Assembly (NCBI GenBank): GCA_002777825.1
Contig: MEIR01000089.1
Coordinates: forward strand, 25,562 to 89,561
DNA: 64,000 nucleotides
Reading direction: 5' to 3'
Source: Snodgrassella alvi
GTDB taxonomy: Bacteria > Pseudomonadota > Gammaproteobacteria > Burkholderiales > Neisseriaceae
Shown here: positions 42,566 through 60,922 of the stretch, in pieces
Layout of the letters: the number at the start of each line of letters is the position of its first letter
Position numbering within the stretch: position 1 is the stretch's first letter
Program-made: the position numbers and the translations under genes
The notes under the pieces: generated by a model
What the model saw: the letters and a program-made list of their open reading frames with translations, nothing else
What the model was told of the DNA's origin: nothing
The model's database searches: none

Positions 42566-42790
42566 ATGTCAAATAATTCTTTAAGACTTACAAAGGTATT
42601 AAAATACTTTAGTGTATCTGATAGTGCATGGGTCAAAACCATCTCAAATCATAAGCTTGATAAAACATATTTTCTCAAACTTAGCCCATTACCTGTATCC
42701 AGCCATGCATGGCTGGCAAATCAATATTACCGGCTGCATTCTCATCTGATATCACCGAATAAACTGTCAATAAATGCGGAGGGCAGATAA
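42566..42790 (+). CDS. Hypothetical small protein
   Basis: 74-aa ORF, stop overlaps next ORF start (ATGA); weak. Confidence 0.2.
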   Translation: MSNNSLRLTKVLKYFSVSDSAWVKTISNHKLDKTYFLKLSPLPVSSHAWLANQYYRLHSHLISPNKLSINAEGR

Positions 42791-43095
42791 TGAATAATAT
42801 CCCTACTGCTGCTATTTCAGCCCAAAAACACAGTGATGCGGCTGCTCAGTCACTGCAAGGTACCAGCTACGCCACTCAGCGCAGCTTTATTCTGCAACGC
42901 TTACGTGAACATCCGCACAGCACTCTGGAACTGCGCGCATTGGGTATCTGTAGTCCGGCACCACGTATTAATGAATTACGTAATCAGGGCTATGTGATTG
43001 AAACGACGCGACGGCATGAATATGATTCCGCCGGTGTGGTACACAGTATCGCTGTGTATACGCTGTTAACTGATACCCACAAGCACAACGATTAA
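42790..43095 (+). CDS. Putative small winged-HTH DNA-binding protein (island-associated regulator)
   Basis: 101 aa; higher GC than neighbours; TLELRALGICSPAPRINELRNQGYVIET resembles HTH segment; no family assignment. Confidence 0.35.
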   Translation: MNNIPTAAISAQKHSDAAAQSLQGTSYATQRSFILQRLREHPHSTLELRALGICSPAPRINELRNQGYVIETTRRHEYDSAGVVHSIAVYTLLTDTHKHND

Positions 43096-43552: not shown

Positions 43553-43571
43553 GAAAATAATTATTATTATC
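43553..43571. promoter_or_regulatory. Candidate Fur box upstream of the NRPS adenylation gene
   Basis: GAAAATAATTATTATTATC matches 15/19 of GATAATGATAATCATTATC. Confidence 0.4.
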
Positions 43572-43656
43572 TTTTAAAAATAATTAAGCCTGTATAGAAT
43601 GTTGTCTCTGGTGGATGGCAATCGGTTTCAGTCTATATTTTTGGGAGAAAGCTTAC

Positions 43657-45522
43657 ATGCACTCTGATACTTCTAAGTTACAGCAACAGCAGGATTTTCA
43701 ATCTGGTGTGAATGATGTGTCTGCACGAAGTTCAACCAGTGAAGTGACGGCAGCAGATGCTTTTCGTTTTCTGGAATATATCCAGCACAATCTATTTGAC
43801 GCTGTGCCGGATAAAACGGCGTTGTTTTATGCTGGTGAGGCCATTAGTTATCCACAGGTGGGGCAGAATGTGGCCAGAATCATGCACGCTTTGCGGCAAA
43901 AAGATTTACAGGCTGGCGCAGTGGTGGCGGTATGTCTGCCCAAAAGTGCTGAACATGTTTATGCTGTTTTAGCCTGTGCGCTGCTGGGTATTATCTGGTT
44001 ACCGGTTGATATGGATGCACCTGAGGCCAGACGCGACTATCTGCTGTCTAACAGTAGGGTTGATGTGGTTATCGCTAAGGCACAGCCAGACGGCTGGCAA
44101 TGTGTTTTGATTGATGATGTTCTGGCTATGCCAGTACCCGAAAAGCCTGAGTGTTCTTATGCACTGAATAAGCGTGCGGCCTATTATTTGTATACTTCTG
44201 GCAGTACGGGGATTCCAAAGTGTGTGGTACTGAATAATCTGGCTACAGCCAATGTACTCGGGCAAACGATTGGCCGATGGAATATGCATCGTGACGATGT
44301 GCTGATAGCAGTAACGCCCTTTCATCATGATATGTCTGTATTCGATGTTTTTGCAGCAATGGCACTTGGTGCTTCTCTGGTGATTCCAACGCCGGCACAG
44401 GTGAAGGATGCCTGTGCATGGGCGCAGTTGGTGGCGACGCATAATGTTACGATCTGGGTGAGTGTGCCGGCGATTGTGGATATGTTGTGCAGTGTGGCTC
44501 GGGTGGAACAATTGCAATCGCTGCGACTGGTTGCGCAGGGCGGCGATTATGTTAAGCCGGCGTTGATTCAATATTTACGCCAGCATCTGCCGCATGCGCG
44601 TTTGTTTTCTCTGGGCGGCCCTACGGAAACCACTATCTGGAGTATCTGGCATGAAATTACTGCTGAGGATGTGGATGTGATTCCTTATGGCCGGGCTTTG
44701 GCGCACAATCAATATTATATTCTGAATGAGCAGTTGCAGCCGTGTGCGGTGGGTGAAGTTGGCCAGATGTATATGGCGGGAGTGAATTTATCCAATGGCT
44801 ATTTGCTTGATGGGCAGTTACTCACCGGCGATTTTGTGTCGCTGCAATGCGATGCGGGAAAAACTGCTTTGCGCATGAATGATCTGGGCTATATGCGCGC
44901 GGATGGCAATATTATTTTTGCAGGGCGTGCTGAAGGCTATCTGAAAATCAAGGGGGTGCGGATTTCGGCAGCAGAAGTAGAAGTTGTGCTGGCTAAATCT
45001 GGCTGTTTACAGGATGGTGTGGTGGTGTGCTGTACTCATCCGGTAACGTCTATGCATGAATTGGTGGCGGTGTATACGCTGCCTGCGGGCAGGCAGAATG
45101 TGGATATTAATGCGTTAAAGCAACATTTATTAGCCAGCCTGCCTAAGTCGCACGTTCCCACCAGATGGCTGGCTATTGACCAGATTCCGCTTACGCGTAA
45201 TGTGAAAGTAGACCGGAAACGTATACAGCAGATGGCGCAGGAGCGTCTGTATCAGGCTGCGGCCGCAGCGGAGCAAAATCAGGCAGTGGCAGATAGTGTT
45301 GTGGCTATTTTTCGTGACTGCTGCCCGCAACAGGCAGACGATACAGGTGATGTTTCTGTGCAATCTGAAATTCTGGCCATGGGTTTGCGCCTGAAACAGT
45401 TAATGATGGTGGCCGGCAGGATTACTGAACGGTTTAATATTCAACTGGATGCGCCGGCTCTGGTGCGTTGTAAAACGGTACAGGATGTGGTGTATCAGGT
45501 GCAGCAGAAGATGCTGAATTAG
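43657..45522 (+). CDS. NRPS adenylation-domain protein with degenerate (Ser-less) C-terminal carrier-like region (AngR/BasD-like, lacking Cy domain)
   Basis: A-domain cores (YTSGSTGIPK, NGYLLDG-type A8, GRxD...K); C-terminal 80 aa resemble PCP fold but lack GGxS serine; SD GGGAGA before MHSD. Confidence 0.8.
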   Translation: MHSDTSKLQQQQDFQSGVNDVSARSSTSEVTAADAFRFLEYIQHNLFDAVPDKTALFYAGEAISYPQVGQNVARIMHALRQKDLQAGAVVAVCLPKSAEHVYAVLACALLGIIWLPVDMDAPEARRDYLLSNSRVDVVIAKAQPDGWQCVLIDDVLAMPVPEKPECSYALNKRAAYYLYTSGSTGIPKCVVLNNLATANVLGQTIGRWNMHRDDVLIAVTPFHHDMSVFDVFAAMALGASLVIPTPAQVKDACAWAQLVATHNVTIWVSVPAIVDMLCSVARVEQLQSLRLVAQGGDYVKPALIQYLRQHLPHARLFSLGGPTETTIWSIWHEITAEDVDVIPYGRALAHNQYYILNEQLQPCAVGEVGQMYMAGVNLSNGYLLDGQLLTGDFVSLQCDAGKTALRMNDLGYMRADGNIIFAGRAEGYLKIKGVRISAAEVEVVLAKSGCLQDGVVVCCTHPVTSMHELVAVYTLPAGRQNVDINALKQHLLASLPKSHVPTRWLAIDQIPLTRNVKVDRKRIQQMAQERLYQAAAAAEQNQAVADSVVAIFRDCCPQQADDTGDVSVQSEILAMGLRLKQLMMVAGRITERFNIQLDAPALVRCKTVQDVVYQVQQKMLN

Positions 45523-45596
45523 GTTTTGATGCTGTTGGCGCAAATAAAGTACTTAATTTGAATTTTAAGTACTTTATTTGTTTTATGCGGGTAGTT

Positions 45597-47714
45597 TTAC
45601 TGGCTGCCGCTCTGTGCTGAAGTCTGTGCGGCCAGTTTGCTCAAGAGTTGCTTCACCTCCCGGGCAATGCGTTCGACTACTGCGGTTGGATAGCGGTGTG
45701 CCTGATAGGTAATTATCATGCTCAGGCTATGCTGGTTGTTAATCTGGTTTTCCATGATTTCAAAGTGCAGGCCGAACATGGATTCGTTACGTTCAGGCAG
45801 TATTTGCCGGTATGGGATGGCACCTTGCGGAGTGTTTAGCTGGCCATTTAAGGCGTTGTTTGTGTGGATATGAATGTAAACATCAAACATTAAGCCCTGA
45901 TTATCGGGGATGCCTAAAGCCTGCTGGATATGATTAATCGGGATATCGGCATACTCTATGGACTCGTTGATTTGTTTGCTGGTGTCGGCCAGTAATGAGG
46001 TGAATGGTTGCTGCGGATTAAAGCGGATACGGTGCGCTACCATGGTGGTAAAGTAGCCAACGGTATCGAAATAGTTGGGGTCGGTACGGCCTGAAGCAGA
46101 GGTACCGATTACGATTTCGGTTAAATTACCCTCTTTTTGCAGTACGGTGGCAATGGCGGTATAAAACACGCTGAATATAGAGGCATGGTGTTTTTTGGTA
46201 AAGGCTGAGATGTTGCGATGGAAGGCTGAATCGAATTTGATTTCCAGCCATTCAATCTGTGGAGCGGTATTTTGCGATGCTGTCGCGACTGTCGAATTTA
46301 AAGTCAGTCCTTTTACAGCTCCTTGCAGATGCTTGCACCAGTAATCGAGATGTTGCTGGTTAATGCCGTTTTGCTGCTGCATGCGGGCAAATTCGTGAAT
46401 GCTGGGAACGCTGTTCGGCCAGACGGGTGCTTTGCCTTGCAGCCGTGCTGCATAGGCTATATTTAAATCGGCCATGATGGTGTTTAAAGACCACTCGTCT
46501 ATTACCATGTGATGCACCAGAAACGATAAAATCGTGTTGCCATTGTGTGCTTTTAACAGGCGGATTCGGAGTGGCAGTTCGCGTGTGAGATCGAATTTAT
46601 AGGCTGCTTCAGTAGCTAAGGTGGCATCTTTGCTGTCGCTGCTCGGCAAGAACCATTGATGCTGTTTAAGCTCGGTAATGGGTACGGTATATTGCAAGGT
46701 TTGTTGGTGTGAGGTTTTAAACAGGGTGCGTAATCCAACGTGGCGGATAATTAAATCATTAAATGCCTGATGTAAGGCTTCTTCATTAACCGGCTGCTGA
46801 AATTCTATAGCGAACGGTAGGTTATAAACGGGGCTGAAATCAAAAGCGCTGTAAGCCTGCCATAAAAAATCCTGCGCCAGTGTTAAGGGTGCCTGTTGTT
46901 CAGGCTGTATCTGGGTTGCGGAAGCAACTGGCTGCTCTTGCTGCGCAATATTGGCCAGTGCACGGGCGGATGGTGATTTAAAGAAATCATTGAAGTTCAG
47001 TTTAATGCCATGGTTGTTCTGTAAGTTGCCAATAGCTCGGGTGGCCAGCAGTGAATGGCCGCCAAAATCAAAAAAGTCATCGTCAAGGGTCATATTCGGT
47101 TCAGCCAGTGTGCTTCTGAACTCTGTCAGTATGATGCTGGCCAGTGCTGCTACGTTGGTATGCTGTGTTTTCTTGGCTGGTGCCGGATTTAAACTGCTTA
47201 AGTCTACTGGTGTGAGCTCGAGCTGATGTTCTGAACCGCTGTAGTTGTTGTAGCTGGTGCGGATTTCTTTGATTAATCCATTCAGTGTGAATTGTTCCTC
47301 AAGTATGGGATGCAAGCGAAGTGCCAGAATTACGCTGTTTTCTGTGCTGATTACTGTTGCCAGAAAAGGCGGGGTGATTTCGGGCTGCCAGTGTTGCTGT
47401 GCCAATGTAGATAATAGTGCAGTAACCTGCCCTTGCGCTGCTTGCTCATTCTGTACGCAGGTTGTCCAATCTGTATCGGGGTATTTGTATAAATCGCCGT
47501 CTTCGGTGAATTCATAGCGGGTATTCAATTCTGTATGCGTTGCCAGCAGGCTGTGGATACTTTTATGCAGGATGGCTGAATTGGGATATGGATTCAGCAG
47601 CCATGCTGCAAGCTGATATTTCACTTGTTCTGGTTCTTGTAACTGTTGCATCCAGATATATTCTTCACGCTCATTGGCTAAAGATGGTGCTGTTGCTGTA
47701 TTTGTATCTGACAT
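45597..47714 (-). CDS. NRPS PCP-condensation didomain protein (AngM-like)
   Basis: thiolation motif FFDFGGHSLLATRAI; condensation motif HHMVIDEWS. Confidence 0.8.
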   Translation of the reverse strand: MSDTNTATAPSLANEREEYIWMQQLQEPEQVKYQLAAWLLNPYPNSAILHKSIHSLLATHTELNTRYEFTEDGDLYKYPDTDWTTCVQNEQAAQGQVTALLSTLAQQHWQPEITPPFLATVISTENSVILALRLHPILEEQFTLNGLIKEIRTSYNNYSGSEHQLELTPVDLSSLNPAPAKKTQHTNVAALASIILTEFRSTLAEPNMTLDDDFFDFGGHSLLATRAIGNLQNNHGIKLNFNDFFKSPSARALANIAQQEQPVASATQIQPEQQAPLTLAQDFLWQAYSAFDFSPVYNLPFAIEFQQPVNEEALHQAFNDLIIRHVGLRTLFKTSHQQTLQYTVPITELKQHQWFLPSSDSKDATLATEAAYKFDLTRELPLRIRLLKAHNGNTILSFLVHHMVIDEWSLNTIMADLNIAYAARLQGKAPVWPNSVPSIHEFARMQQQNGINQQHLDYWCKHLQGAVKGLTLNSTVATASQNTAPQIEWLEIKFDSAFHRNISAFTKKHHASIFSVFYTAIATVLQKEGNLTEIVIGTSASGRTDPNYFDTVGYFTTMVAHRIRFNPQQPFTSLLADTSKQINESIEYADIPINHIQQALGIPDNQGLMFDVYIHIHTNNALNGQLNTPQGAIPYRQILPERNESMFGLHFEIMENQINNQHSLSMIITYQAHRYPTAVVERIAREVKQLLSKLAAQTSAQSGSQ

Positions 47715-47910
47715 GTTTTTTAATCCTCTCTTGTTCCGTTGAAGACGAGTAAGTAGCTAATTAATGAATGGCCGGATGTTGATGAAACACGATGAACGCT
47801 GAAGTTTTATTAACAATTGGCTGGATTCGGGCTGTTTTGCAGCGGTAGCTGCTCCTGAGCATTTTTTATTTTATTTATATTACTTTACACTTTATTTAAA
47901 AATATAATAC

Positions 47911-47945
47911 AATTGATTCTCATTTTCATCAATAATAATTGTTCT
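47911..47945. promoter_or_regulatory. Candidate Fur box(es) in divergent promoter between NRPS PCP-C gene and ABC permease operon
   Basis: AATTGATTCTCATTTTCATCAATAATAATTGTT contains overlapping GATAAT/ATCATT-like hexamers. Confidence 0.35.
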
Positions 47946-48152
47946 TAATTTTATTTAATATTTTTGTTTGTGCTAATGGAACGGGTATGAACGTTGCGTT
48001 GTAAGAATATACGGAGCATAAGGAGAAACAATGCGAGGTATGTACGAGCAAATGCAGGGGCAGAAGTCTTCTTGCATACTCCGGTGTTTGCTTACTGAAA
48101 ATTCAATGTTGCCGGTATTAAGCTGCTGTACCGGTGTGAAGGTGTATCTCTG

Positions 48153-49094
48153 ATGTATCTAGGTATGATAGGTGCATTTTTTGTTTTATGCATACTCTCT
48201 TTGCTGGTAGGCTCTGATCCGATTTCATGGACAGGTTTACTGGTCGGTTCAGATGCTGACTGGCTAACTTTGAAAGCCAGCCGTTTCCCGCGCCTGCTGG
48301 CGATTATTCTTACTGGTATGGGGCTTTCTATTGGCGGGGTAATTCTACAACATATTGTCCGCAATAAGTTTGTTGAGCCGGAAACGGCCGGCGGGCTAGA
48401 TGCAGCTAAGCTGGGGATTCTGATGTCACTGGTACTGCTGCCTTCGGTTGGGGTATTAAGTAAGATGCTGGTGGCTCTGGCGTTCTGTTTTGTGGCTGAG
48501 CTGATTTATATCCTGATTATTGCCAGAATCCGCTATCAGCAAATTGTGCTGATTCCGGTAATTGGGCTGATGTATGGCGGTGTGTTAAGTGCCGGCGCTG
48601 AATTTTATGCTTATAAAAATAATCTTTTGCAAAATGTTCAGGGCTGGCTGCTGGGTGATTTTTCGCGTGTGGTACAGGGGCATTATGAGTTGCTGTATGT
48701 TCTGATACCGGTGATTGTGCTGAGTTATGTGTTTGCACAGCGGTTTACGGTGGCAGGTATGGGGCAGGAAGTGGCTACCAGTCTGGGTGTGGGCTATAAA
48801 AGCACGGTGGTGCTGGGGCTAATGCTTGTGTCTGTTACTGTTGCGGCAACGGTGATTACGGTGGGCTCCATTCCTTTTATCGGGCTGGTGATTCCGAATC
48901 TGGTGGCACTTAAGTATGGTGAACATTTAGCCAAAACTTTACCGATGGTGGCTCTGGGCGGGGCATGTCTGCTGCTCGTATGTGATATTAGCGGCCGTTT
49001 AATCATTTATCCTTTTGAAGTCCCTATTGGTCTTACTGCCGGTGCTGTTGGCGGTATTGTCTTTCTGCTGCTGATTTTGCGGGGGCTTCGCTAA
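48153..49094 (+). CDS. Iron-siderophore ABC transporter permease (FecCD family)
   Basis: 313 aa, ~9 TM, FecCD motifs; operon with second permease, ATPase, binding protein. Confidence 0.85.
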   Translation: MYLGMIGAFFVLCILSLLVGSDPISWTGLLVGSDADWLTLKASRFPRLLAIILTGMGLSIGGVILQHIVRNKFVEPETAGGLDAAKLGILMSLVLLPSVGVLSKMLVALAFCFVAELIYILIIARIRYQQIVLIPVIGLMYGGVLSAGAEFYAYKNNLLQNVQGWLLGDFSRVVQGHYELLYVLIPVIVLSYVFAQRFTVAGMGQEVATSLGVGYKSTVVLGLMLVSVTVAATVITVGSIPFIGLVIPNLVALKYGEHLAKTLPMVALGGACLLLVCDISGRLIIYPFEVPIGLTAGAVGGIVFLLLILRGLR

Positions 49095-50038
49095 TGAATC
49101 GCAGATTCTGGCTGTTTTGTGGCTGCATCATTGCTCTGGCTGTGTTTTTTATGCTGTTTGATTCTGGCTTTGATGTTGATTATGTGCTGCCCAAACGTCT
49201 GTTACGGCTGGCTACTATTTTGCTGGCCGGTATCTGTATTGCGGTGTCGTCGGTGGTGTTTCAAACGTTGGTAACTAACCGGATTTTAACGCCGGCAATT
49301 ATGGGCTACGAGGCGGTTTATCTGTTCTGGCAGGTACTGCTGTTGTTCTTTCTGGGGCAAAGTGGTCTGGGATTACTGGGGCTTAATGGCAATTTCTTTG
49401 CCTCGGTAGGCTTAATGCTGCTGTATTCGTGGATGATTCATCATTTTTTACTGCCGCGAGCACGCCATAATCTGTGGCTGTTGTTGTTATTTGGTCTGGT
49501 ACTGACCATGGTAATCACTACTTTAACCCAGTTTATCCAGCTCAAAATCAGTCCGGGGGAGTTTTCGGTATTTCAAGGCATTAATTATGCTTCTTTTAAT
49601 CATTCAGAAACGCTGACGCTGGTATATGCTGCTATAGCGATGCTGGTGGTGGGCTGGGTGGCCTACCCGTATCTGCCTATGCTGGATGTGATGGCTCTAG
49701 GTGAAGAACAGGCCATTTCGCTGGGCGTGGATTATGCCCGCTATGTGCGCTGGGGGTTTGGTCTGATTGCGGTGCTGGTGGCGGTATCCACCAGTCTGGT
49801 TGGACCCACGGCATTTATGGGGGTATTTATTGCCAATATGGCTTACGCCTTTGCCGGCCACTTTCAACATAAACGCATTCTGTTATTTGCCAGTGCTGTG
49901 GCTGTTGTGGTGTTTCTGGTGGCGCAGATTCTGGTGGAACATGTGTTTAATTACAGGACTACGGTAAGTATTTTAATCAATCTGATTTGTGGGATGTATT
50001 TTCTGCTGCTTATTGTCTGTCGTCGAGGAATGGCATGA
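49094..50038 (+). CDS. Iron-siderophore ABC transporter permease (FecCD family, second subunit)
   Basis: 314 aa; start overlaps upstream stop (TAATG). Confidence 0.85.
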   Translation: MNRRFWLFCGCIIALAVFFMLFDSGFDVDYVLPKRLLRLATILLAGICIAVSSVVFQTLVTNRILTPAIMGYEAVYLFWQVLLLFFLGQSGLGLLGLNGNFFASVGLMLLYSWMIHHFLLPRARHNLWLLLLFGLVLTMVITTLTQFIQLKISPGEFSVFQGINYASFNHSETLTLVYAAIAMLVVGWVAYPYLPMLDVMALGEEQAISLGVDYARYVRWGFGLIAVLVAVSTSLVGPTAFMGVFIANMAYAFAGHFQHKRILLFASAVAVVVFLVAQILVEHVFNYRTTVSILINLICGMYFLLLIVCRRGMA

Positions 50039-50811
50039 TTCATATTCAGAATATTTGCAAAATTTATGGTCATAAGCCGGTACTGAATAATATTAATCTG
50101 GCGCTGCCGCTGCATCAGGTGACGGCGCTGATTGGCCCCAATGGCGCGGGTAAATCTACTTTGCTGATGATACTGGCACGGTTACTGGCACCCACTACAG
50201 GCAGTATTCTGTTTGAGCAGCAGGATATTGCCAGTATCCGCATTGCTGATTATGCCCGTCTGGTGGCCACGCTGCGGCAATCGCCCTATTTCGGCCTGCG
50301 TCTGACTGTAAAGGAGCTGGTGTCTTTCGGCCGCTTTCCATATGGACATGGATTGTTGTCTGCTAAAGATCATCAGGTAATAGACGAGGCAATAGATTTT
50401 TTAGATTTAAGTGCGCTGCGTGATGCATATATTGATGAATTAAGTGGCGGGCTGCGGCAAATGGCTTTTCTGGCCATGACTATTGCTCAGGAAACACGGG
50501 TTCTTCTGCTGGACGAACCTTTAAACAATCTGGATATGAATCATGCGGTACAAATTATGGCTGCTATCCGGCGTTTGTGTGAGGAACAGCGGAAAACTGT
50601 GATTATGGTGGTGCATGATATTAATTTCACGGCCAATTATGCAGATTATATTGTGGCTTTAAAACACGGACAGTTAAGTTTTTGTGGCGCTACGCGGGAA
50701 GTGATTACTGAAGAGTGTCTGAGTGAGCTGTATGGGCTGAATTTTGAAATCAGCCACACTAAGCATGGTTATGTCTGTCAGTATTTTCATTCGTTGAAAG
50801 GTAAAGCATGA
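50035..50811 (+). CDS. Iron-siderophore ABC transporter ATP-binding protein (FecE/FatE-like)
   Basis: Walker A GPNGAGKST, signature LSGGLRQ, Walker B LLLDEP; ATGA overlap with permease stop. Confidence 0.9.
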   Translation: MIHIQNICKIYGHKPVLNNINLALPLHQVTALIGPNGAGKSTLLMILARLLAPTTGSILFEQQDIASIRIADYARLVATLRQSPYFGLRLTVKELVSFGRFPYGHGLLSAKDHQVIDEAIDFLDLSALRDAYIDELSGGLRQMAFLAMTIAQETRVLLLDEPLNNLDMNHAVQIMAAIRRLCEEQRKTVIMVVHDINFTANYADYIVALKHGQLSFCGATREVITEECLSELYGLNFEISHTKHGYVCQYFHSLKGKA

Positions 50812-51794: not shown

Positions 51795-51898
51795 TTGTAT
51801 TGTTAATTATAAAAGAATAATAAGTAACATCAGTGAATTCAATCCTGCCAATAAGCTTTTAAATATGTTGCATAAATTTGGTTAACAAGGAGATATCT

Positions 51899-54163
51899 AT
51901 GGGTAAACACGAACATTATCTGAGGCAGGATGGTCTACACAGGATTAGAAAACGGGGCGACAGTGTCGTAAGTTCTGTCAGCTCCTCCCCCAAAGCGCTG
52001 ATATTGAGTCTGGCCAGTGCTATGCTGGTTTATGCACCGGTACAGTATGCTAAAGCAGCGGATGATGAGGCTAAGCCAGAGATTAACAAAGCAGCAGATA
52101 AAACTATGCAATCTGCTGGCAAGGCCAATTTACCAGATGTGGTGGTAGAGGCAAATCAAAGCACTACCTACACCGGTGGTTTTGTGTCCAGAAACAGCCG
52201 TATCGGTTTTCTTGGTAACAAAAATGCCATGGAAACACCTTTTAATACCGTTAGTTATACTGATAAATTTGTTGAAGATACTCAGGCCAGAAATGTGACT
52301 GATGTGATTGCCGCTACTGACCCGTCAGTATTTACTAATGGCGCTATTGGTGGCTGGAGTGAGAATTACTATATTCGAGGTTTTCAGTCTAATACCAATG
52401 ATATGTCGATGAATGGTTTATTTGGTATTGCTCCTTACTACAGGACTGCACCTGCGATGTTTTCGCGCATTGAGGTGCTGAAAGGACCTTCAGCACTGCT
52501 GAATGGTATGCCGCCTGCCGGTTCTGTGGCAGGCACGGTTAATTTGGTATCCAAGCGCGCAGGTGATGCACCACTGCTACGGGTAACACCTACCTATATG
52601 TCTGATTCACAATGGGGCGGTACTATCGATGCCGGCCGCCGCTTCGGGCAAAATAAGCAATTCGGGATTCGGGTTAATGGCGTTTATCAGGATGGTTCCG
52701 GCCCGGTAAGAAAGCAGGATCTGAAAACTCAGCTTGGTTCGGCAGGCATGGACTGGCGCGGCTACCGGACGCGTATTTCCGCCGATTTTTACATGGCTGA
52801 TGACAAGGTAGACGGTGTAGTGCGCGGTATCAATCTGGGTAAAAATATGGAAGTTCCTGCGCCGCCCAACCCGAAAACCTTAATCAATCCAGACTGGTCT
52901 TATGTCAGTAATAAAGACCGTGGCGCGATGATGCGTGCTGAATATGATATTAGCGACAACATTACTGCCTATGCTGCTTTCGGACGCAGTAAAACCAAGT
53001 ACAAATACAATGGTGCCACTTCTGCAAATTTGCTGGATAATCACGGCACCATACAGACGGTGATGGCACAACTGGCGTTTGATGTGGATAAAAAATCGGC
53101 TGATGTGGGATTAAGGGGGCAGTTTGATACCGGTTTGGTTAATCATCAATGGGTAATCAATACTACCTACTACAAGCATAACCAGCATGATTATGGGGTG
53201 AGAAGTATTCCCTCGGCCACATGGATAACCAATATGTATCATCCGGTATGGGGTAAATCGGTACCGTTTGATGTGCCGCCGATTTCTAGAAGCTCGCTGC
53301 AACTTAAAAGCTATGGGATAGCGGATATGCTGTCATTGATGCAGGACAGGCTGCAACTAACTTTAGGCCTGCGCTATCAGGAAGTGAAAAGTGATAATCT
53401 GAGCCTGATGGGCAAACCGGTTCTAACTGAATATAAAAAACATGCCCTAACGCCGGGGGCGGCCATTTTGTTTAAAGCCACCGAACATGTATCACTTTAT
53501 GGCAATTATATTCAGGGCTTAACCAAAGGCGATTCAGCTCCTATTACTGCGGCCAATTATCCCAAGGTGTTTGCGCCGTATAAAACCAAGCAAACTGAGC
53601 TGGGCATCAAATGGGATTATGGCACGCTGTCTCACTCATTAAGTGTGTTTAATATTAAAAAACCCAGTAGTTATACTGATGTGACTACCAATATCTTTAC
53701 TTCCGGCGGTGAGCAGCGTAACCGTGGTATTGAGTGGAGTTTTATTGCCTCGCCGATTGAAACAGTACGCCTGATGGGCGGTGCCAGCTACATTAAACCG
53801 GAACTAACCAAACTGGCCAAGCATGGTAATGAGGGTAATATTGCTACGGGTGTGACCAAAGTACAGGGCAAACTGGGTGCTGAATGGGATATTGCTGCTG
53901 CTGTGGGGATGGTCACCCTGTCTGCCAATGCCACAGCCGTATCCAAGCAATACCTCAATCAGGAAAACAGTTTATCTGTACCCGGCCATACTGTATTTGA
54001 TATTGGTGCTCGTTATAATGCCAAAGTATCTGGCCATCCCTTTACACTACGGGCAGAGATTAAGAATGTTACCAATAAAAGCTATTGGGGCATGCCACGC
54101 TTGTCTAACCTGTCTTTAGGCGCACCACGGACTTTTCTGCTGTCCGGTTCCTATGATTTCTGA
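51899..54163 (+). CDS. TonB-dependent siderophore outer-membrane receptor
   Basis: signal peptide, plug-domain motifs, C-terminal beta-barrel ending in aromatic residue (..SYDF*); SD AAGGAGA 6 nt upstream of ATG at 51899 (ORF-track 51878 is a TTG). Confidence 0.85.
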   Translation: MGKHEHYLRQDGLHRIRKRGDSVVSSVSSSPKALILSLASAMLVYAPVQYAKAADDEAKPEINKAADKTMQSAGKANLPDVVVEANQSTTYTGGFVSRNSRIGFLGNKNAMETPFNTVSYTDKFVEDTQARNVTDVIAATDPSVFTNGAIGGWSENYYIRGFQSNTNDMSMNGLFGIAPYYRTAPAMFSRIEVLKGPSALLNGMPPAGSVAGTVNLVSKRAGDAPLLRVTPTYMSDSQWGGTIDAGRRFGQNKQFGIRVNGVYQDGSGPVRKQDLKTQLGSAGMDWRGYRTRISADFYMADDKVDGVVRGINLGKNMEVPAPPNPKTLINPDWSYVSNKDRGAMMRAEYDISDNITAYAAFGRSKTKYKYNGATSANLLDNHGTIQTVMAQLAFDVDKKSADVGLRGQFDTGLVNHQWVINTTYYKHNQHDYGVRSIPSATWITNMYHPVWGKSVPFDVPPISRSSLQLKSYGIADMLSLMQDRLQLTLGLRYQEVKSDNLSLMGKPVLTEYKKHALTPGAAILFKATEHVSLYGNYIQGLTKGDSAPITAANYPKVFAPYKTKQTELGIKWDYGTLSHSLSVFNIKKPSSYTDVTTNIFTSGGEQRNRGIEWSFIASPIETVRLMGGASYIKPELTKLAKHGNEGNIATGVTKVQGKLGAEWDIAAAVGMVTLSANATAVSKQYLNQENSLSVPGHTVFDIGARYNAKVSGHPFTLRAEIKNVTNKSYWGMPRLSNLSLGAPRTFLLSGSYDF

Positions 54164-54169
54164 TGTGTA

Positions 54170-54205
54170 GCCATTAAAAAATCGCCCGATGGGCGATTTT
54201 TTAAT
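54170..54205. terminator. Bidirectional terminator between convergent receptor and monooxygenase genes
   Basis: AAAAATCGCCC-GATG-GGCGATTTTTT perfect hairpin flanked by A/T runs. Confidence 0.8.
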
Positions 54206-54215
54206 GGCAGCCTGC

Positions 54216-55532
54216 TTACTCGGGTAATCCATACTGCTGAAATGCAGAGTATTCCGGTACCTGATAATACTGCTTACCTAGTAACTGGTTGATAATCACC
54301 CCGTTTCTGGTTGCGCCCATGCCTAAATCCGGCGAACCAACGCCCTGTTTGGCAATTTCGGCATTCTGGATAAAAATCCGCCCTTGGCCACCATCACAGC
54401 GCACAGCAGTAAAATCCTGATTAATCATATAATCATGCTGATCATCGGTTTGCAGTACAGTGCCTTTCAGCTCTTCAAACCAGCTCGGCCACTGATGGTG
54501 GTAGCCGGTAGCAGCAACAATCGCATTGCTCTGAATAGTTTGTTGTTGATTAAGCTGAGTATGCAGGCAGGTCATATTGATAACGCCTGAAGGCAGCACT
54601 TCTATCGACTGCACATCACAATTTGAAAACAGCGTCAGTCCGGCCGGTGCTCCGGCGATGGTGCGTTCGTACAGCAAATCATAAATATCGCCGATGGTAG
54701 CAAAACTGATGCCTTTGTATAGTTGCCCTTGGCTGGCACTGATTTCTCGTCTTTTCTGTGGTGGCAAAGTCTGGAAATAACGCATATAAACCGGCGTAAA
54801 ACACTCCTGTCCCAATTTGGAAAATTCCATCGGATGAAAACCTGCAGAACGGGTAATCCAGCGAATAGAGGCGCCGGCTCTGATTTGCTCCGGCTGCAAG
54901 GCTTGGTAAAGTGCCAGCACACATTCAGCAGCACTCTGCCCTGCACCAACCACAGTAACCTGCCTGCATTGCTGTAGCTGTTCCTGCATATGGGTAAACT
55001 GAGCAGAGTGCAGAATGAGCGGATGGCTGGTATTTTTCAGCCATTCAGGATAGTAGGGGACGGTGCCAATGCCAATCGCAATATCCTGACTGCAATAAGC
55101 CTGTTTTTTTCCGGCAGAAGATTCACTTTCAATAATAAATTTTTCCTGCTGGCGGTCATAGCTTACTGCCTGCACACAAGAATCAAAATGGCAGGAGGGT
55201 AACTGACGCACAGCCCAGCGACAGTAGTCATCATATTCCTGACGCGGTATCAGGAAACGGTCGTAGTAGCAAAACTGGTACAGACGCTGATGCTGATGCA
55301 GGTAATTCAGATAGCTTAAGGGATGGCATGGATTGGCCATAGTAACCAGATCGGCCAGAAACGGTACTTGCAGAGTGGTGCCGGGTAATAGTAAACCCGC
55401 GTGCCAGTGAAAAGTGGGCGTTTTATCCAAAAACACTGCATTAACTTCCGGATGGCTCGACAACAATGCCGCCAGCCCCAGATTGAAAGGGCCAAGCCCT
55501 ATACCGGCCAAATCAGTTTGTTTCATATCCAT
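54216..55532 (-). CDS. Flavin-dependent N-hydroxylating monooxygenase (IucD/PvdA/BasC/AngU family)
   Basis: N-terminal FAD motif GIGLGPFNLGLAALL, second nucleotide-binding motif VTVVGAGQSAAE; K_oxygenase family. Confidence 0.85.
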   Translation of the reverse strand: MDMKQTDLAGIGLGPFNLGLAALLSSHPEVNAVFLDKTPTFHWHAGLLLPGTTLQVPFLADLVTMANPCHPLSYLNYLHQHQRLYQFCYYDRFLIPRQEYDDYCRWAVRQLPSCHFDSCVQAVSYDRQQEKFIIESESSAGKKQAYCSQDIAIGIGTVPYYPEWLKNTSHPLILHSAQFTHMQEQLQQCRQVTVVGAGQSAAECVLALYQALQPEQIRAGASIRWITRSAGFHPMEFSKLGQECFTPVYMRYFQTLPPQKRREISASQGQLYKGISFATIGDIYDLLYERTIAGAPAGLTLFSNCDVQSIEVLPSGVINMTCLHTQLNQQQTIQSNAIVAATGYHHQWPSWFEELKGTVLQTDDQHDYMINQDFTAVRCDGGQGRIFIQNAEIAKQGVGSPDLGMGATRNGVIINQLLGKQYYQVPEYSAFQQYGLPE

Positions 55533-55593
55533 ATTTATTTCATCCCTATATCTAAGCTGTTAAATATTTATGTGCTTACAGCAGTTGATAACC

Positions 55594-58461
55594 TTATGCC
55601 GTAGACATCATTGATTGAATCAGGTGTTCAACTTCCTCAATATTGCGACAGCCAATCAACTGCCTTGGCTTCATAGCCAGCCCGAAAATCTGGTTAATCT
55701 GGCTGGTAACTTCTTTTACGTGTACAGGACGCAAACCCAGATTACTCAATGATTGCGAGGTTTGGATAATTGTTGCTGGCTTAATATTCAGCACTTTGCA
55801 GTAAATCAGCATTAATTGCTGGCGCTGCCAGTCTGCTGCTGCCACGGGCTGCTCATCAGGATTTGGTGCAGTGCCGGATGGTGTCTGTAGCAGCACTGAA
55901 TCAATATTTTCCAGTCCGCTATCAGCCACCTGCTGGCACACATTCACCAGTGCAGCTAAAAAATCGTGGATGATGGCATCGCTAACAGCAGCCTGAGCAT
56001 AGTCAACGTTAAACAGCAAAGCACCATCATTCCCAAGCATAAAGCGGATATCCATTGCTACCTGTGGTGTCTGAGTCAGCCCGCTCACATAGCGAACCGG
56101 GCTATCTGCCGGCAGAGTTGGCCACGATAGCCCATTGGTAACAACAACTGGTAAAACCGGCGCATGGCCATGCTGTTCAAACAGCAAGCGCGCCAAATCA
56201 ACACCAGAAAAGGCCAAATGCTGTAATCCTTCCAGCGTATCGGTTTGTAATTTTCTGGCCTGTTCGATAAATGCTGCCGTTGGCGCCCAAGTAGTGACAA
56301 TAAAAGTAGACTGATTGGACAATTCACCCTCATACAGCGGTAACACTGGCACCGCCACAGACAATAAGGCTGGTGTCTGCTGCCAGCGATTCAATACCGC
56401 CAGAATCAGCGCCATTAGTAAAGAATTTTTGAACAATCCCTGACGACAACCGAACTGACATAATGTTTGCAACGTTTGCTTGGGCAACATCGCACTTTGA
56501 CGGGTATAAACGGAGGTCATCAGTGTTGCCAACGGCTGTTTCCAAGGTAACTGCGGTATGGAAGTAACTTCTTGCAACCGCTGTTTCCAGTAAATAACCG
56601 CCAAGTTATAACGCTGGCTATCCTGCTGCTGTCTGTTTTCAGGCTGAGGTGACGCGGTCATAAGGGGCGTATCGGTGAATAATTCATACATCAGCGCGGC
56701 AATCGCACGCCCATCCAAAATCAGCGCATCAAAACGAGCAAACACAATAAACTGTTGCGGCGTTAACTGAAAAAGGGTGATGTCCCACGGAGATTCCTGT
56801 AAATCAAATAGCGCCTGCTGATAATTCTGCCGCAGAGTATTTATTTTTTCTGCGGCCACTGACGGTTCCTCACCACACAAATTAATTTCGGTTAAATTAA
56901 TGATTGCCTGCGGGTTTACCCATTGCACACAACGTCTGGCATCAATATAAGTCCTCAAACTGGCATGGTGCTGCACCATATCGGCCAGACGCTGCCGGAA
57001 TACAGGTAAATCCAGCGTGCCGGCATATTCGCGAAATTCCTGCATAGCCACACCACCAAGAGCAAATGCAGTGCTGCGCCCAGATAAATAGGCCTTTTGC
57101 AGCGCATTCAGCGGTGTAGTTACCACATCAGGGTCGGTGATATTCAGGTACTGATTCAATACCGCCAGCGGCTGCGTAAAACGCTCCGGCTGAACAATCA
57201 ACGCATTCATCAGCGCAAGACAACGTTCAAACAGAGCATTTACCCATGTATCCGGCAATGCATCCAGACGGATATCCCAATTAACGAGCAAATGATTGTC
57301 CAGCTGCACAAACTGTGCATCCAGTGCTACCTGCGACCCCTGAGAAATACACCAGTCCATGCTGCCAAAATACTGATGCACCTGTGACGAAAATAAACTT
57401 TTCTCTGCTAAATCCAGCGCAGCAGTAAAAACAACCGGCGCAATTTGCGCCATAGCATGATGGCGTGACAAACACCGCATCACATTTACGCCACTAAACT
57501 GCCGATGGTTCAGACAGCGCTGCCATTCGGCTGCCACGCGCTGGCAAAAAGCATTTAGAGTAGCCGCATCAGACATATCAATATTTAACAGCACCATATC
57601 GGCAAAATCACCAATGGTTTTATCAATATCGGGTACAACTGGTTCGCGCCAGAAAAACGGCACGTTCAGCCGGTAAGCGGCATCATGGGTTACTTTACCC
57701 AGACTGTAGGCAAATAACCCCAGTATCAGAGCAGAAAAAGTCAACTCATGCTGATGGGCAAGTTGGCGTAACTGCTTTGCCTGCTCAGGACTGAAAGTCG
57801 TACTCAGCCGTGTGCTTTGTGCCCCCGCCACAGCACAGTTGGTTAAAGGCAAAGCAGGAGCAGGAGCAATCGCTGCTATACGGGACTGCCACCACTGGCG
57901 TGCACGTTGCTGCTGTTGCTGCTCATGCTTATCCTGCCGTAGGGTGTTGCGCCATACATAAAAAGACGGTGCCGGCGGTAGAGACTTAGTGCTGTCTGCA
58001 TAAAACTGCGCCAAATCTTCCATCAAAATACGAAAGCTGGAAGGATCAACAGCAATCATATCGGCATCAATATGCAACCGAAATGCCTGATTATCCAGAA
58101 GACTGATAGAAACACGTATAGTCTGCCCCTCCTCCAACTTCAGTTGTTGATGCGTCCATTGCTGGCGTTTTTCTTCGAGCTTCTGTTGCTGCTGCGCCTC
58201 ACTCAAATGTAAAAAATCATCTATTTCCAGCGTATTCTGTGGCAGAGAATCCCTGATACTGACTTCCCCCGCAGCACTAAGTTGCAGGCGTAACAGCTCA
58301 TGGCGCCGGTACAGACATTCTATTGCCTGCCTGAGTCTGGCTACATCAATATGGCTACCATTAAATTCTGTATAAAGATGTGCGGCCACACCACCGAGCA
58401 TTGCTGCATGCGTACGCCCAAACCAGCATGCCGACTGCATTGAAGTAAGTTCACGCATCAT
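55594..58461 (-). CDS. NRPS tandem heterocyclization (Cy-Cy) protein (AngN/BasB-like)
   Basis: 955 aa; first Cy motif DADMIAVDPSS (DxxxxDxxS), second degenerate DALILDGRA. Confidence 0.7.
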   Translation of the reverse strand: MMRELTSMQSACWFGRTHAAMLGGVAAHLYTEFNGSHIDVARLRQAIECLYRRHELLRLQLSAAGEVSIRDSLPQNTLEIDDFLHLSEAQQQQKLEEKRQQWTHQQLKLEEGQTIRVSISLLDNQAFRLHIDADMIAVDPSSFRILMEDLAQFYADSTKSLPPAPSFYVWRNTLRQDKHEQQQQQRARQWWQSRIAAIAPAPALPLTNCAVAGAQSTRLSTTFSPEQAKQLRQLAHQHELTFSALILGLFAYSLGKVTHDAAYRLNVPFFWREPVVPDIDKTIGDFADMVLLNIDMSDAATLNAFCQRVAAEWQRCLNHRQFSGVNVMRCLSRHHAMAQIAPVVFTAALDLAEKSLFSSQVHQYFGSMDWCISQGSQVALDAQFVQLDNHLLVNWDIRLDALPDTWVNALFERCLALMNALIVQPERFTQPLAVLNQYLNITDPDVVTTPLNALQKAYLSGRSTAFALGGVAMQEFREYAGTLDLPVFRQRLADMVQHHASLRTYIDARRCVQWVNPQAIINLTEINLCGEEPSVAAEKINTLRQNYQQALFDLQESPWDITLFQLTPQQFIVFARFDALILDGRAIAALMYELFTDTPLMTASPQPENRQQQDSQRYNLAVIYWKQRLQEVTSIPQLPWKQPLATLMTSVYTRQSAMLPKQTLQTLCQFGCRQGLFKNSLLMALILAVLNRWQQTPALLSVAVPVLPLYEGELSNQSTFIVTTWAPTAAFIEQARKLQTDTLEGLQHLAFSGVDLARLLFEQHGHAPVLPVVVTNGLSWPTLPADSPVRYVSGLTQTPQVAMDIRFMLGNDGALLFNVDYAQAAVSDAIIHDFLAALVNVCQQVADSGLENIDSVLLQTPSGTAPNPDEQPVAAADWQRQQLMLIYCKVLNIKPATIIQTSQSLSNLGLRPVHVKEVTSQINQIFGLAMKPRQLIGCRNIEEVEHLIQSMMSTA

Positions 58462-58511
58462 TTCATTAATCTGTTGACAAATTTACTATTTTTGACGATT
58501 ATACCTTTAAA

Positions 58512-58530
58512 TGAAAATGATTACCAGTTT
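58512..58530. promoter_or_regulatory. Candidate Fur box in divergent promoter between Cy-Cy gene and entE-like gene
   Basis: GAAAATGATTACCAGTTTC matches 14/19 of Fur consensus. Confidence 0.3.
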
Positions 58531-58636
58531 CATTTAATAAATTTGAAACAACAGTTAACCTACTAATGGGTTCCACTGAACAGACAGACACAAAAACGAT
58601 GTTGCAAACTAATTATTACTTATAAATCAACATTAT

Positions 58637-59947
58637 TTGTCTGATTCAACCGGTTTAGCAGAAAAGGCTGATGAAATGATTACCTATACACACTGGCCAG
58701 AAGATTTAGCCCGCAAATACCGGCAAAAAGGTTATTGGCTGGATCAGCCGTTAACCCGAGTCCTGACAGACACAGCCAAACAGTCACCACACTCAACCGC
58801 CATTATCTGCGGTGACCGGCGCATCAGTTATCAGGAACTCAACCAGTTTTCCGACAATCTGGCCGCCAGACTGGCGGAGCAGAACTTTGGCATTGGTGAT
58901 ACAGCACTGGTGCAACTACCGAATATTGCCGAGTTTTATATTGTATTTTTCGCCCTGCTCAAGGCTGGTATCGTGCCGCTGAACGCCCTGTACAACCATC
59001 GCCAACATGAATTAAAGAGCTTCTTCAGCCAGATTAAACCCCGGTTGCTAATAGCATCGCGCAACCATGAAGTATTCATGCACAATCATTTTCTCGACCA
59101 GCTGGACAGCCTGCAACTGGCACCAGCCCTCACCCTGATGCTGCATGCCACAGACGGTGATAGAAACTTAAAAAACTGGTACACCTGCCCTCCCGCCACC
59201 AGCAGCAATTATGCCTGCACTCAGGCTGATGAAGTGGCTTTTTTCCAGCTTTCCGGCGGTAGCACCGGCACACCTAAGCTGATTCCGCGCACCCATAATG
59301 ATTATGAATACAGCGTGCGTGCCAGTGCCGAAATATGCGGCCTGAACCAGAATACACGTTTATTGTGTGCCATGCCGGCGCCGCATAACTATATGCTGAG
59401 TTCGCCCGGTGCACTGGGCGTATTTCATGCCGGCGGCTGTGTGGTCATGGCGGCCAGCCCCGAACCATCAAGCTGCTTTGCTCTGATTGAACAACACCAG
59501 CTTACCATGGCCTCACTTGTACCCAGTGCAGTATCCATGTGGATGCAGCAGCCACCGGAACAGTTAGAAAAAACCCGGTCGTTACAACTGATTCAGGTAG
59601 GCGGTGCCAGTTTTCCAGAATCCATGGCGCGGCAGGTATTAAACGTTTTCGGCTGCCAGTTACAGCAAGTATTCGGCATGGCTGAAGGACTGGTGAACTA
59701 TACACGGCTAGATGACAGCGAAGAAGTGATTGTCACCACACAAGGACGTCCCATCAGCCCAGATGATGAAGTAAAAATAGTGGATGAAAACGGCAACGAT
59801 GTACCTGATGGAGAAACAGGCATGCTAAAAACACGCGGGCCTTACATCTGCACCCCACCCCCGCCGTATGCGGTCCCCCCACCGCAACAGCAAGACAGTT
59901 TATCCTTACCCATGAAGGTTACAACCGCCACTACTACAGCGGCCTGA
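58637..59947 (+). pseudogene. entE: 2,3-dihydroxybenzoate-AMP ligase (EntE/AngE/BasE-like), 3'-truncated and fused to an isochorismate synthase 3' fragment
   Basis: first ~400 aa collinear with E. coli EntE through ...TRGPY; then Pro-rich nonsense encoded by C-tracts (CACCCCACCCCCGCC...GTCCCCCCACC) and stop; last ~125 codons of EntE absent. Confidence 0.75.
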
Positions 59948-60132
59948 ATGGTTGGATGGACGCCAGCGGTAATGGCGAATGGGTAGTTACCATCCGCAAT
60001 GGCCTGCTAAATCACAACAAAATCCGCCTGTATGCCGGTGCCGGCATCGTTAAAGGCTCCGAGGCAGCAACAGAATGGCAAGAAACCGAAGCCAAAATGC
60101 AAACCATGCTCAACGTCTTTCAGCAGCAATAA
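59842..60132 (+). pseudogene. 3' fragment (~75 codons) of an isochorismate synthase gene (EntC/AngC-like), frame +1 relative to entE
   Basis: translation ...GYNRHYYSGLNGWMDASGNGEWVVTIRNGLL...IRLYAGAGIVKGSEAATEWQETEAKMQTMLNVFQQQ* matches chorismate-binding enzyme C-terminus (EntC ...YAGAGIVPASSPLGEWRETGVKLSTMLNVF); no N-terminal 300+ codons present. Confidence 0.75.
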
Positions 60133-60154
60133 CCCCAACTTAGGAAAAACCAAA

Positions 60155-60922
60155 ATGCAATCTGCCATCATCGTTACCGGCGCAGCACAAGGCATCGGCG
60201 CCGCCGTAGTCAGCAAGCTACTTCAACAAAACTACCATATTATCGGCATCGACAAACAGCCAGCCCCGGCAAACTGGCCAGTACAACAAATGATAGCGCC
60301 CCAATATCAGCACCACTGGCTTGGCGTTAGTCAGAACATAACCGACTTCGAAGAAACCCAAATCCTGCTCAACACCCTTATCGCCCAACACCACATCACC
60401 GGTTTAGTCAACGTTGCCGGCATACTCATACTTACCCCCCTGCTCAATGCCACAGAAACACAATGGCAAAGCAGCCTAAACATAAACCTACTAGCACCCA
60501 TCTTCATCAGCCAGCATTTAGCTCGACATTTCCATCAGCAACAACACGGCAGCATCGTTACCGTCAGCTCCAACAGCGCCCGTATGCCCCGCACCCAGCT
60601 AGGCCTGTATGCCACCACCAAAGCCGCCCTCAGCCACTTCTGCCGCAATCTGGCATTAGAAGTAGCCCCATACGTACGCGTCAACATCGTTTCCCCCGGC
60701 TCCACCCACACCGCCATGCAGCAACAACTGTGGCCAGACAACCAGCCACCAGCCAGCATAATCAATGGCGACCTAAACCAGTACCGCCTCGGCATTCCCC
60801 TCAGAAAACTGGCACAGCCCGCAGATATAGCCAATACCGTTTCCTTCCTGCTCTCCGAACAGGCTGCCCAGATAACCATGCAGGAAATCGTCGTCGATGG
60901 CGGCGCCACACTGGGGGTTTAA
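60155..60922 (+). CDS. entA: 2,3-dihydro-2,3-dihydroxybenzoate dehydrogenase (SDR)
   Basis: TGAAQGIGAAV NAD motif, catalytic YxxxK (YATTKAAL), SPGST.T.M and C-terminal IVVDGGATLG closely paralleling E. coli EntA. Confidence 0.85.
   Translation: MQSAIIVTGAAQGIGAAVVSKLLQQNYHIIGIDKQPAPANWPVQQMIAPQYQHHWLGVSQNITDFEETQILLNTLIAQHHITGLVNVAGILILTPLLNATETQWQSSLNINLLAPIFISQHLARHFHQQQHGSIVTVSSNSARMPRTQLGLYATTKAALSHFCRNLALEVAPYVRVNIVSPGSTHTAMQQQLWPDNQPPASIINGDLNQYRLGIPLRKLAQPADIANTVSFLLSEQAAQITMQEIVVDGGATLGV

Follow-up and report, generated by a model that had tools for sequence, protein, structure and literature searches.

In the hospital pathogen Acinetobacter baumannii, acinetobactin serves as a major virulence siderophore. 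The system comprises basA-J, bauA-F and barAB (Mihara 2004; Dorsey 2004; summarised in PMC8524058 and PMC12005286), and the published gene order runs from basA through basJ (PMC8524058). BasE loads 2,3-dihydroxybenzoate (DHB) on BasF and BasA loads L-threonine on the peptidyl carrier protein (PCP) domain of BasB; in BasD, tandem cyclisation (Cy) domains carry out both condensation and ring closure, and the condensation (C) domain of BasB passes the product on to N-hydroxyhistamine (PMC12005286). A 64-kb stretch of Snodgrassella alvi DNA (64,000 nucleotides of contig MEIR01000089.1, analysed as a whole and referred to below as the window) holds a related locus between positions 43,553 and 60,922. 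With good confidence, this locus is the Snodgrassella counterpart of the acinetobactin system carrying a deletion of 6,440 bp, and the strain is most likely a non-producer that can still import the siderophore of neighbouring strains.

The proteins of the window and of an intact S. alvi locus were compared by tblastn with the A. baumannii chromosome segment ending at barB. The acinetobactin cluster of A. baumannii was found to correspond as one unbroken collinear series from basA to barB, with amino acid identities of 49–69% (basA 55%, basB 55%, basC 67%, basD 49%, basE 69% and basF 58%; bauD 68%, bauC 62%, bauE 62%, bauB 65% and bauA 65%; barA 58% and barB 55%), and only basG was without a Snodgrassella counterpart. 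The full common order is basA, basB, bauD, bauC, bauE, bauB, bauA, basC, basD, basE, basF, barA, barB, basI, basJ. Both systems have the same split non-ribosomal peptide synthetase (NRPS), in which a stand-alone adenylation (A) protein, a PCP-C protein, a Cy-Cy protein, an aryl-activating A protein and an isochorismatase–aryl carrier protein (ICL-ArCP) are encoded separately. Snodgrassella, a betaproteobacterial bee-gut symbiont, differs from A. baumannii in the lack of basG (histidine decarboxylase, hdc), basH (thioesterase) and bauF; no bauF was found upstream of basA in the Snodgrassella clusters, where a gene for an HTH_39 protein is located instead. The entA gene, unlinked in A. baumannii (PMC8524058), is linked downstream of basJ in Snodgrassella. 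A sequence-only reading of the window had proposed either the AngR/Fat logic of anguibactin or the Bas/Bau logic of acinetobactin. The second half of this proposal stands, given the collinearity, a BasA identity of 55% and an A-domain specificity code equal at nine of ten positions, and the first half falls, since AngR is only 26% identical and the protein in the window has no Cy domain. The split architecture and the siderophore class were likewise recognised correctly, but a working pathway is contradicted by the deletion.

A DHB-AMP ligase gene had been listed in the sequence-only reading, corresponding to an open reading frame (ORF) of 436 aa at 58637–59947 on the forward strand. Only a stump of this gene is present. 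The pseudogene basE′ (58637–59846, forward strand) consists of codons 1–403 of 550 and is fused to a remnant of an isochorismate synthase gene, the ORF continuing out of frame past the junction to a stop at 59947. It is 99% identical to residues 1–403 of the intact BasE of contig L082 and matches NF008192 and TIGR02275 only at profile positions 1–389 of 526–534, with scores below both cut-offs. In the DNA that follows the residues ...TRGPY, the other frame encodes HPTPAVCG...AGAGIVKGS... up to a stop codon, which is the C-terminus of an isochorismate synthase. This remnant, ′basJ (59851–60132, forward strand), comprises approximately the last 90 codons without a start codon, covers positions 176–257 of 257 in PF00425, and is 99% identical to residues 301–388 of the intact L082 BasJ.

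The two remnants meet at a 9-bp microhomology, GGCCTTACA (59838–59846), of which one copy is present here and two copies, 6,440 bp apart, in the intact strains. The parental sites read CGCGGGCCTTACACCTTTCGC in basE and AATCTGGCCTTACATCTGCACC in basJ, the junction in the window reads CGCGGGCCTTACATCTGCACC, and the 23-mer across it is CGCGGGCCTTACATCTGCACCCC. In blastn, homology to S. alvi WF3-3 (98.5%) and to S. gandavensis (86%) was unbroken from 44.2 kb and stopped abruptly at 59849; the break points lie at 59849 and 59838 in the window and at 3255 and 9684 in L082, with an overlap of 12 bp. Comparison with the intact strains shows that 6,440 bp have been deleted here between two direct repeats of 9 bp. 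A clean 9-bp microhomology junction is a classic signature of deletion by slipped or illegitimate recombination. The lost segment encodes the C-terminal subdomain of BasE, the whole of BasF, BarA, BarB and BasI, a phosphopantetheinyl transferase (PPTase), and the first 300 or so codons of BasJ.

It is improbable that the gap is not biological and was produced by an assembly artefact or by deletion during laboratory culture. In favour of such an origin, the gap occurs in one assembly only, and exact-protein look-ups with EntA, AmpD, BauD and the truncated BasE did not find the strain in the contig collections; the remaining genes, moreover, show no decay, as expected of a very recent event. The junction itself speaks for a genuine deletion, being a clean microhomology with unique sequence on either side, no Ns and no contig edge. 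A repeat of 9 bp is much shorter than the k-mers used by assemblers and far too short to mislead them. Relaxed selection on the orphaned bas genes gave no signal, the ratio of non-synonymous to synonymous differences (pN/pS) against WF3-3 being 0.25 for the bas genes and 0.20 for the bau genes. As these values are similar and the remaining genes are all full length, the deletion is considered recent.

All 16 other Snodgrassella contigs examined (L081–L090, L001, L002 and L102–L105) contain the additional 6,440 bp with the 3′ end of basE, basF, barA, barB, basI and most of basJ, and 14 of these reach far enough to show basJ and entA. One common gene series was found in ten S. alvi contigs with 99% identical EntA: basD, basE (550 aa), an isochorismatase-ArCP (291 aa), two ABC exporters (533 and 527 aa), a PPTase (262 aa), an isochorismate synthase (388 aa) and EntA (255 aa). 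Four contigs of more distant Snodgrassella lineages have the same series, and the length of BasE ranges from 537 to 550 aa across the 16 contigs. The pN/pS values across species, 0.10–0.24 for every gene, indicate that selection maintains the cluster in Snodgrassella.

The sequence-only reading had noted the absence of hdc, thioesterase and PPTase genes from the window, and tblastn confirmed it for all three. The PPTase gene is missing as a result of the deletion. This does not apply to the other two, since the intact Snodgrassella clusters are also without them: hdc and thioesterase genes were absent from every Snodgrassella cluster examined, where the basF-barA spacer measures 55 bp and the barB-basI spacer 25 bp, and tblastn with AngH, Acinetobacter gerneri BasG and AngT gave no match in any of the Snodgrassella loci examined, the window included. 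An hdc gene, with products 61–69% identical, is linked to the cluster in A. gerneri, three Chromobacterium species and a Pseudomonas, and hdc is also linked in A. baumannii and on the anguibactin plasmid pJM1.

Homology with A. baumannii suggests the following steps for the intact Snodgrassella pathway. DHB would be made by BasJ, BasF and EntA and loaded by BasE on the aryl carrier of BasF, and BasA would charge the carrier domain of BasB with L-threonine. A catechol-oxazoline would be formed by the two Cy domains of BasD and released by the C domain of BasB onto an N-hydroxylated amine provided by BasC. BarAB would export the product, and BauA together with BauBCDE would re-import the ferric complex. 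From the observed deletion and the observed intactness of the remaining genes we infer that the strain can very probably neither make nor export the siderophore. Without the C-terminal subdomain of BasE, the isochorismatase-ArCP and a functional isochorismate synthase, DHB could not be made by this route and could not be loaded either; as further consequences of the deletion, the carriers would not be primed by BasI and there would be no export by BarAB. A complete BasE with BasF, BasJ, BasI and BarAB, which an acinetobactin-type cluster requires, is present in the intact strains and absent from the window.

A working anguibactin- or acinetobactin-type cluster, with the missing ArCP/isochorismatase, PPTase, hdc and thioesterase encoded elsewhere in the genome, would agree with the presence of most genes in intact form, and A. 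baumannii does back up some bas functions by a second siderophore cluster and has its entA unlinked (PMC8524058). Nevertheless, this explanation is very improbable: the C-terminal subdomain of BasE is missing entirely, as are the first 300 or so residues of BasJ, the lost genes are located at exactly this place in 16 other contigs, and a full rescue would need six separate paralogues, none of which is encoded in the 64 kb. In particular, tblastn detected no other copy of BasF, BarA, BarB, BasI or BasJ in the window.

The genes that remain for biosynthesis, basA, basB, basC, basD and entA, are all full length. The basA-like gene (43657–45522, forward strand) encodes a stand-alone adenylation protein (PF00501, TIGR01733); its ORF opens at 43615, and the likely start is the ATG at 43657 behind a GGGAGA Shine-Dalgarno sequence. 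A protein search with this sequence returned Snodgrassella proteins of 621–626 aa first, followed by hundreds of proteins of 615 aa named ‘acinetobactin non-ribosomal peptide synthetase subunit BasA’ by NCBI, with an identity of 55–57%. The carrier-like tail without a phosphopantetheinyl serine, which had been described for the A protein, was confirmed: the last 85 residues or so match PF00550 with 21.1 bits (gathering score 20.8), and leucine replaces the serine (..AMGLRLKQ.. where GG[HD]SL is expected). BasA of A. baumannii has such a Ser-less tail too, with G-I-R-P where G-L-R-L is found here.

A check of the A-domain code for cysteine or threonine had been proposed. The specificity positions were read from motif anchors, checked on an alignment to LgrA and compared with A. 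baumannii BasA, and gave DMFVAGLIWK, a code of BasA type that is equal to the DMFSAGLIWK of A. baumannii at nine of ten positions. Since BasA loads threonine (PMC12005286), an oxazoline ring is predicted and not a thiazoline, so that of the thiazoline/oxazoline product foreseen earlier only the oxazoline is retained. Position 278 is valine in all Snodgrassella sequences and serine in A. baumannii BasA, which leaves some room for a shifted substrate preference.

The anguibactin genes of pJM1 (angR, angM, angN, angU, angH, angT and fatABCDE, including hdc and thioesterase) are scattered among insertion sequence (IS) elements. The synteny comparison that had been suggested for both systems thus yielded collinearity with basA-barB of A. 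baumannii but not with pJM1, where AngR is different as well. Full-length homologues were found in AngM (40%), AngN (42%), AngU (58%) and FatDCBA/E (43–59%), the identity being lower than that to Acinetobacter for nearly every gene. AngR is a Cy-A-PCP protein of 1048 aa, only 26% identical to the A protein of the window, and it too has a carrier-dead domain (GGDA) on the A protein. Its Cys-type code, N-M-S-M-I-W at positions 278–331, differs from that of the window at positions 278, 299, 301 and 322. On the grounds of this low identity and the different code, the assignment to anguibactin was rejected.

A related but broader alternative is that the intact Snodgrassella system makes another product, either an anguibactin-like thiazoline or a compound with a different N-hydroxy amine, no hdc being linked. 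Code positions 322–517 (L-I-W-K) resemble those of Cys-type domains, the valine at position 278 is shared by all Snodgrassella sequences where A. baumannii has serine, and hdc is linked in A. gerneri, the three Chromobacterium species, the Pseudomonas and pJM1 and never in Snodgrassella. However, BasA of A. baumannii has the same L-I-W-K and acinetobactin contains threonine, AngR departs from the window both in its code and in overall sequence, the BasC-like protein passes the equivalog cut-off for histamine N-monooxygenases, and the BauA- and BauB-like proteins are close to acinetobactin-binding proteins. A different product is therefore judged rather unlikely, and the counterpart of the acinetobactin system is preferred.

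The nearest relative found outside Snodgrassella is the cluster of A. gerneri (L003), which has the same gene order and no deletion (BasC 69%, BauD/C/E/B 68–72%, BasE 70%, BasB 54% and BasD 53% identity). It differs in a pyridoxal phosphate-dependent decarboxylase of 381 aa (PF00282) encoded between basF and barA. The loci of Chromobacterium and of Pseudomonas sp. NCCP-436 (L004–L006, L008) encode the same monooxygenase (58–62%), PCP-C protein (44–47%) and FecCD importer, with hdc linked, but have Cy-Cy and A fused in one protein of about 1500 aa, whose Cy-Cy and A parts are homologous at 41–48%. In the window, Cy-Cy and A are encoded by two genes separated by 10 kb. This family thus has two architectures, one of them the split basD/basA arrangement found in Acinetobacter and Snodgrassella.

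The separate PCP-C protein, the tandem Cy-Cy protein and the N-hydroxylating monooxygenase of the sequence-only reading were borne out by Pfam and NCBIfam matches and the ORF listing. The basB-like gene (45597–47714, reverse strand) encodes a PCP-C protein with PF00550 at residues 196–255 and PF00668 at residues 272–701, preceded by an N-terminal region without a domain match. Its carrier motif FGGHSL, with the active Ser221 intact, and its condensation motif HHMVIDEW are present, and it is 55% identical to A. baumannii BasB and 40% to AngM. The product of the basC-like gene (54216–55532, reverse strand) is a flavin-dependent amine N-monooxygenase (PF13434, 360 bits), 67% identical to its A. 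baumannii counterpart and 58% to AngU; a score of 759 bits against TIGR04439, ‘putative histamine N-monooxygenase’, above the equivalog cut-off of 700 bits, predicts its substrate. The basD-like gene (55594–58461, reverse strand) encodes a tandem Cy-Cy protein of 955 aa with two PF00668 stretches, DxxxxD motifs at residues 134 and 578, and identities of 49% to A. baumannii BasD and 42% to AngN. Its C-terminus matches PF00550 at residues 882–948 (29.4 bits on the tail alone), is Ser-less (..NLGLRPVH..) and represents the same dead-carrier type as the tail of the BasA-like protein. The entA gene, encoding 2,3-dihydro-2,3-dihydroxybenzoate dehydrogenase (TIGR04316, 269 bits), is intact as had been stated; a 296-aa ORF from 60032 is an upstream extension, and the true coding sequence lies at 60155–60922 on the forward strand. 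EntA is 99% identical to S. alvi protein P0001 and 64–67% to EntA of Acinetobacter.

The Ser-less carrier-like C-termini of the BasA-like (45340–45492) and BasD-like (55618–55818) proteins have a common motif, G-[LI]-R-[PL], which is also present in A. baumannii BasA. Instead of being decayed carriers, these tails may serve for docking.

All five uptake genes are full length in the deletion strain and their promoters are untouched, so that the FecBCDE-type importer and the TonB-dependent receptor announced earlier are indeed there. Two FecCD permeases are encoded on the forward strand, a bauD-like one at 48153–49094 (PF01032, 201 bits), 68% identical to that of A. baumannii and in the same position, and a bauC-like one at 49094–50038 (PF01032, 136 bits; 62%). 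The bauE-like gene for the ABC ATPase (50035–50811, forward strand; PF00005; 62%) has an ORF opening at 49987, and the start at 50035 was chosen from orthologues of 258 aa. The bauB-like gene (50808–51794, forward strand; PF01497) encodes the periplasmic siderophore-binding protein, with BauB (6mfl, 470 bits) as the best match in the PDB and the next at 197 bits. For the bauA-like TonB-dependent outer-membrane receptor (51899–54163, forward strand; ORF opening at 51878; TIGR01783, 350 bits), BauA (6h7f) was the best PDB match with 903 bits, the next reaching 515. A perfect hairpin, CCATTAAAAAATCGCCCGATGGGCGATTTTTTAATGG, with A and T runs on either side, lies at 54171–54207 between the convergent bauA and basC genes and is a probable bidirectional terminator.

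A 19-bp Fur consensus, GATAATGATAATCATTATC, was scored across the whole 64-kb window as consensus matches only, and just nine sites score 14/19 or more. The best in the window (16/19) is a Fur-box-like site at 43553–43571 upstream of basA, followed directly by a sigma-70-like promoter at 43573–43600 (together 43553–43600, forward strand). The second best (15/19), at 58513–58531, lies in the divergent basD/basE spacer and overlaps the basE promoter TTGACA-17-GATTAT (10/12; 58474–58531, forward strand). The divergent basB/bauD promoter region (47884–47949) has promoter-like sites on both strands (TTTACA-18-TACAAT, 10/12) and overlapping weak Fur-box-like matches of 12–13/19 at 47903–47949. The hexamer pairs that scored best in a promoter scan of the region coincided with the Fur-box-like sites. 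A. baumannii has Fur-box-like promoters in the corresponding intergenic regions, and the positions found here fit the iron control reported for that species (PMC4394237). Judged from these matches, Fur probably represses transcription at the three promoter regions.

The basB/bauD spacer measures 438 bp and contains, just upstream of bauD, a short ORF at 47990–48152 beginning with ATGCGAGGTATGTAC. A gene of 40 aa is called at the corresponding place in L092, and the short ORF could be a leader peptide or represent an alternative start of bauD.

Several points weigh against the interpretation of the strain as an importing non-producer. Besides the single assembly in which the deletion was seen, and with it the small chance of an assembly error or a deletion upon laboratory passage, the use that the strain makes of its retained uptake genes is inferred. 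The 64 kb represent the visible part of the genome, and paralogues in the rest of it could make up for some of the lost steps. As hdc is absent from all Snodgrassella clusters, the amine, and with it the exact product, are predictions even for the intact strains. The searchable literature reports no siderophore from Snodgrassella: neither NRPS nor siderophore clusters were listed when 88 genomes of the genus were surveyed with antiSMASH (PMC9598484), and a literature search gave no paper connecting Snodgrassella with acinetobactin.

The kind of system is well characterised; new are its presence in Snodgrassella, the genus-wide layout without hdc and thioesterase and with entA linked, and the natural deletion variant. 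A collinear copy under purifying selection in a core symbiont of the honey-bee gut would extend bee-gut biology by an iron-acquisition system not reported so far. The absence of hdc throughout the genus raises a testable question about the source of the amine building block, and the deletion strain and the intact strains form a natural pair for testing public-goods dynamics within one symbiont. Tentatively, and with more doubt than confidence, the strain could be seen as a natural siderophore ‘cheater’ in a host-restricted gut community, having lost production and export in one deletion but kept the Fur-controlled Bau uptake, and living on the acinetobactin-like siderophore of co-resident strains. 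In this view the pathway of the whole genus is hdc-less, and the producers themselves would need a supply of histamine or of some other amine, provided by the bee or by other gut microbes. If true, siderophore synthesis would be a community-dependent trait. For annotation, the lesson is that a ‘DHB-AMP ligase’ call of 436 aa can mask a deletion scar which alters the functional reading of a whole cluster.

An island-borne acquisition of the cluster had been suggested from its location behind tRNA-Phe, and is at best weakly indicated. The cluster occupies the same site (ampD, tRNA-Phe, islet, HTH_39, basA) in the bumble-bee Snodgrassella ESL0253 and in another S. alvi strain, and its GC content, 47.5%, differs little from that of the core genes in the flank (49%). 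Among the ORFs annotated from tRNA-Phe to the adhesin gene beyond entA there was none for an integrase, and no att-like repeat of the 3′ end of tRNA-Phe was found. Identity to the JGI strain is mildly different, 94.5% in the flank against 97–99% within the cluster. A search with AmpD homologues for an empty tRNA-Phe site returned only carriers of the cluster (L095) and an unrelated organism (P0333, L097–L100) with different synteny. A recent island was rejected because of the common site in divergent species, the host-like GC content and the lack of an integrase and an att-like repeat. Only two Snodgrassella species representatives appeared in a genome scan and the nearest relatives outside the genus are from Acinetobacter, which points to an old transfer with patchy retention.

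The strain-variable part is restricted to an islet of 1.6 kb (41120–42758) outside the siderophore system, which is AT-rich (27% GC) and has a strain-specific orphan ORF at 41525–42394. Unrelated orphan ORFs were found here in three strains (289 aa in the window, 273 aa in L091 and 303 aa in L095) without homology of the interval, and they had no Pfam, NCBIfam or PADLOC match. The islet looks like a small hypervariable hot spot. Beside basA, a small winged-helix protein of 101 aa (HTH_39; 42790–43095, forward strand; PF14090, 38.7 bits) is encoded. It is conserved immediately upstream of basA in S. alvi and in a bumble-bee Snodgrassella; its L091 orthologue is 87% identical and it is also present in L095, but a third lineage, L092, lacks it. 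A role as a local regulator is possible; its membership in the siderophore system is uncertain.

The window was assigned to the chromosome of the S. alvi group, near the replication origin, based on the relatives of the monooxygenase and the genes of the left flank. The monooxygenase (54216–55532) is 100% identical at the protein level to that of S. alvi WF3-3 and 92% to that of S. gandavensis, and beyond the genus 69% to that of A. gerneri and 62% to that of Chromobacterium. The left flank contains ligA, zipA, ampD and tRNA-Phe, and farther left yidC, dnaA, gyrB and a type I restriction-modification system. The tRNA-Phe (GAA; 41007–41082, forward strand), identified by ARAGORN and Rfam (RF00005, 72 bits), is the left landmark outside the cluster and the sole match of the Rfam scan. 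A 29-mer taken from its promoter had no match when metagenomes were scanned.

With yidC, dnaA and gyrB located at 12669–20726, the siderophore locus lies about 25–45 kb from dnaA. The type I restriction-modification operon (hsdR, AAA_13 ATPase, hsdS, hsdM; 22024–29274) has a GC content of 34–40% and is probably an accessory defence island. At the other end, a YadA-like trimeric autotransporter adhesin with tandem repeats of about 279 bp is encoded from 62031 to 64000 and runs past the end of the window; its orthologues in other S. alvi strains measure 1565 to 2039 aa, so the number of repeats differs among strains. Between entA and the adhesin gene, a non-coding interval of 1.1 kb (60923–62030) has a GC content of 26% and many promoter-like AT-rich hexamers. 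In bumble-bee lineages, this interval holds three additional genes (HTH_26, DUF2975 and EamA).

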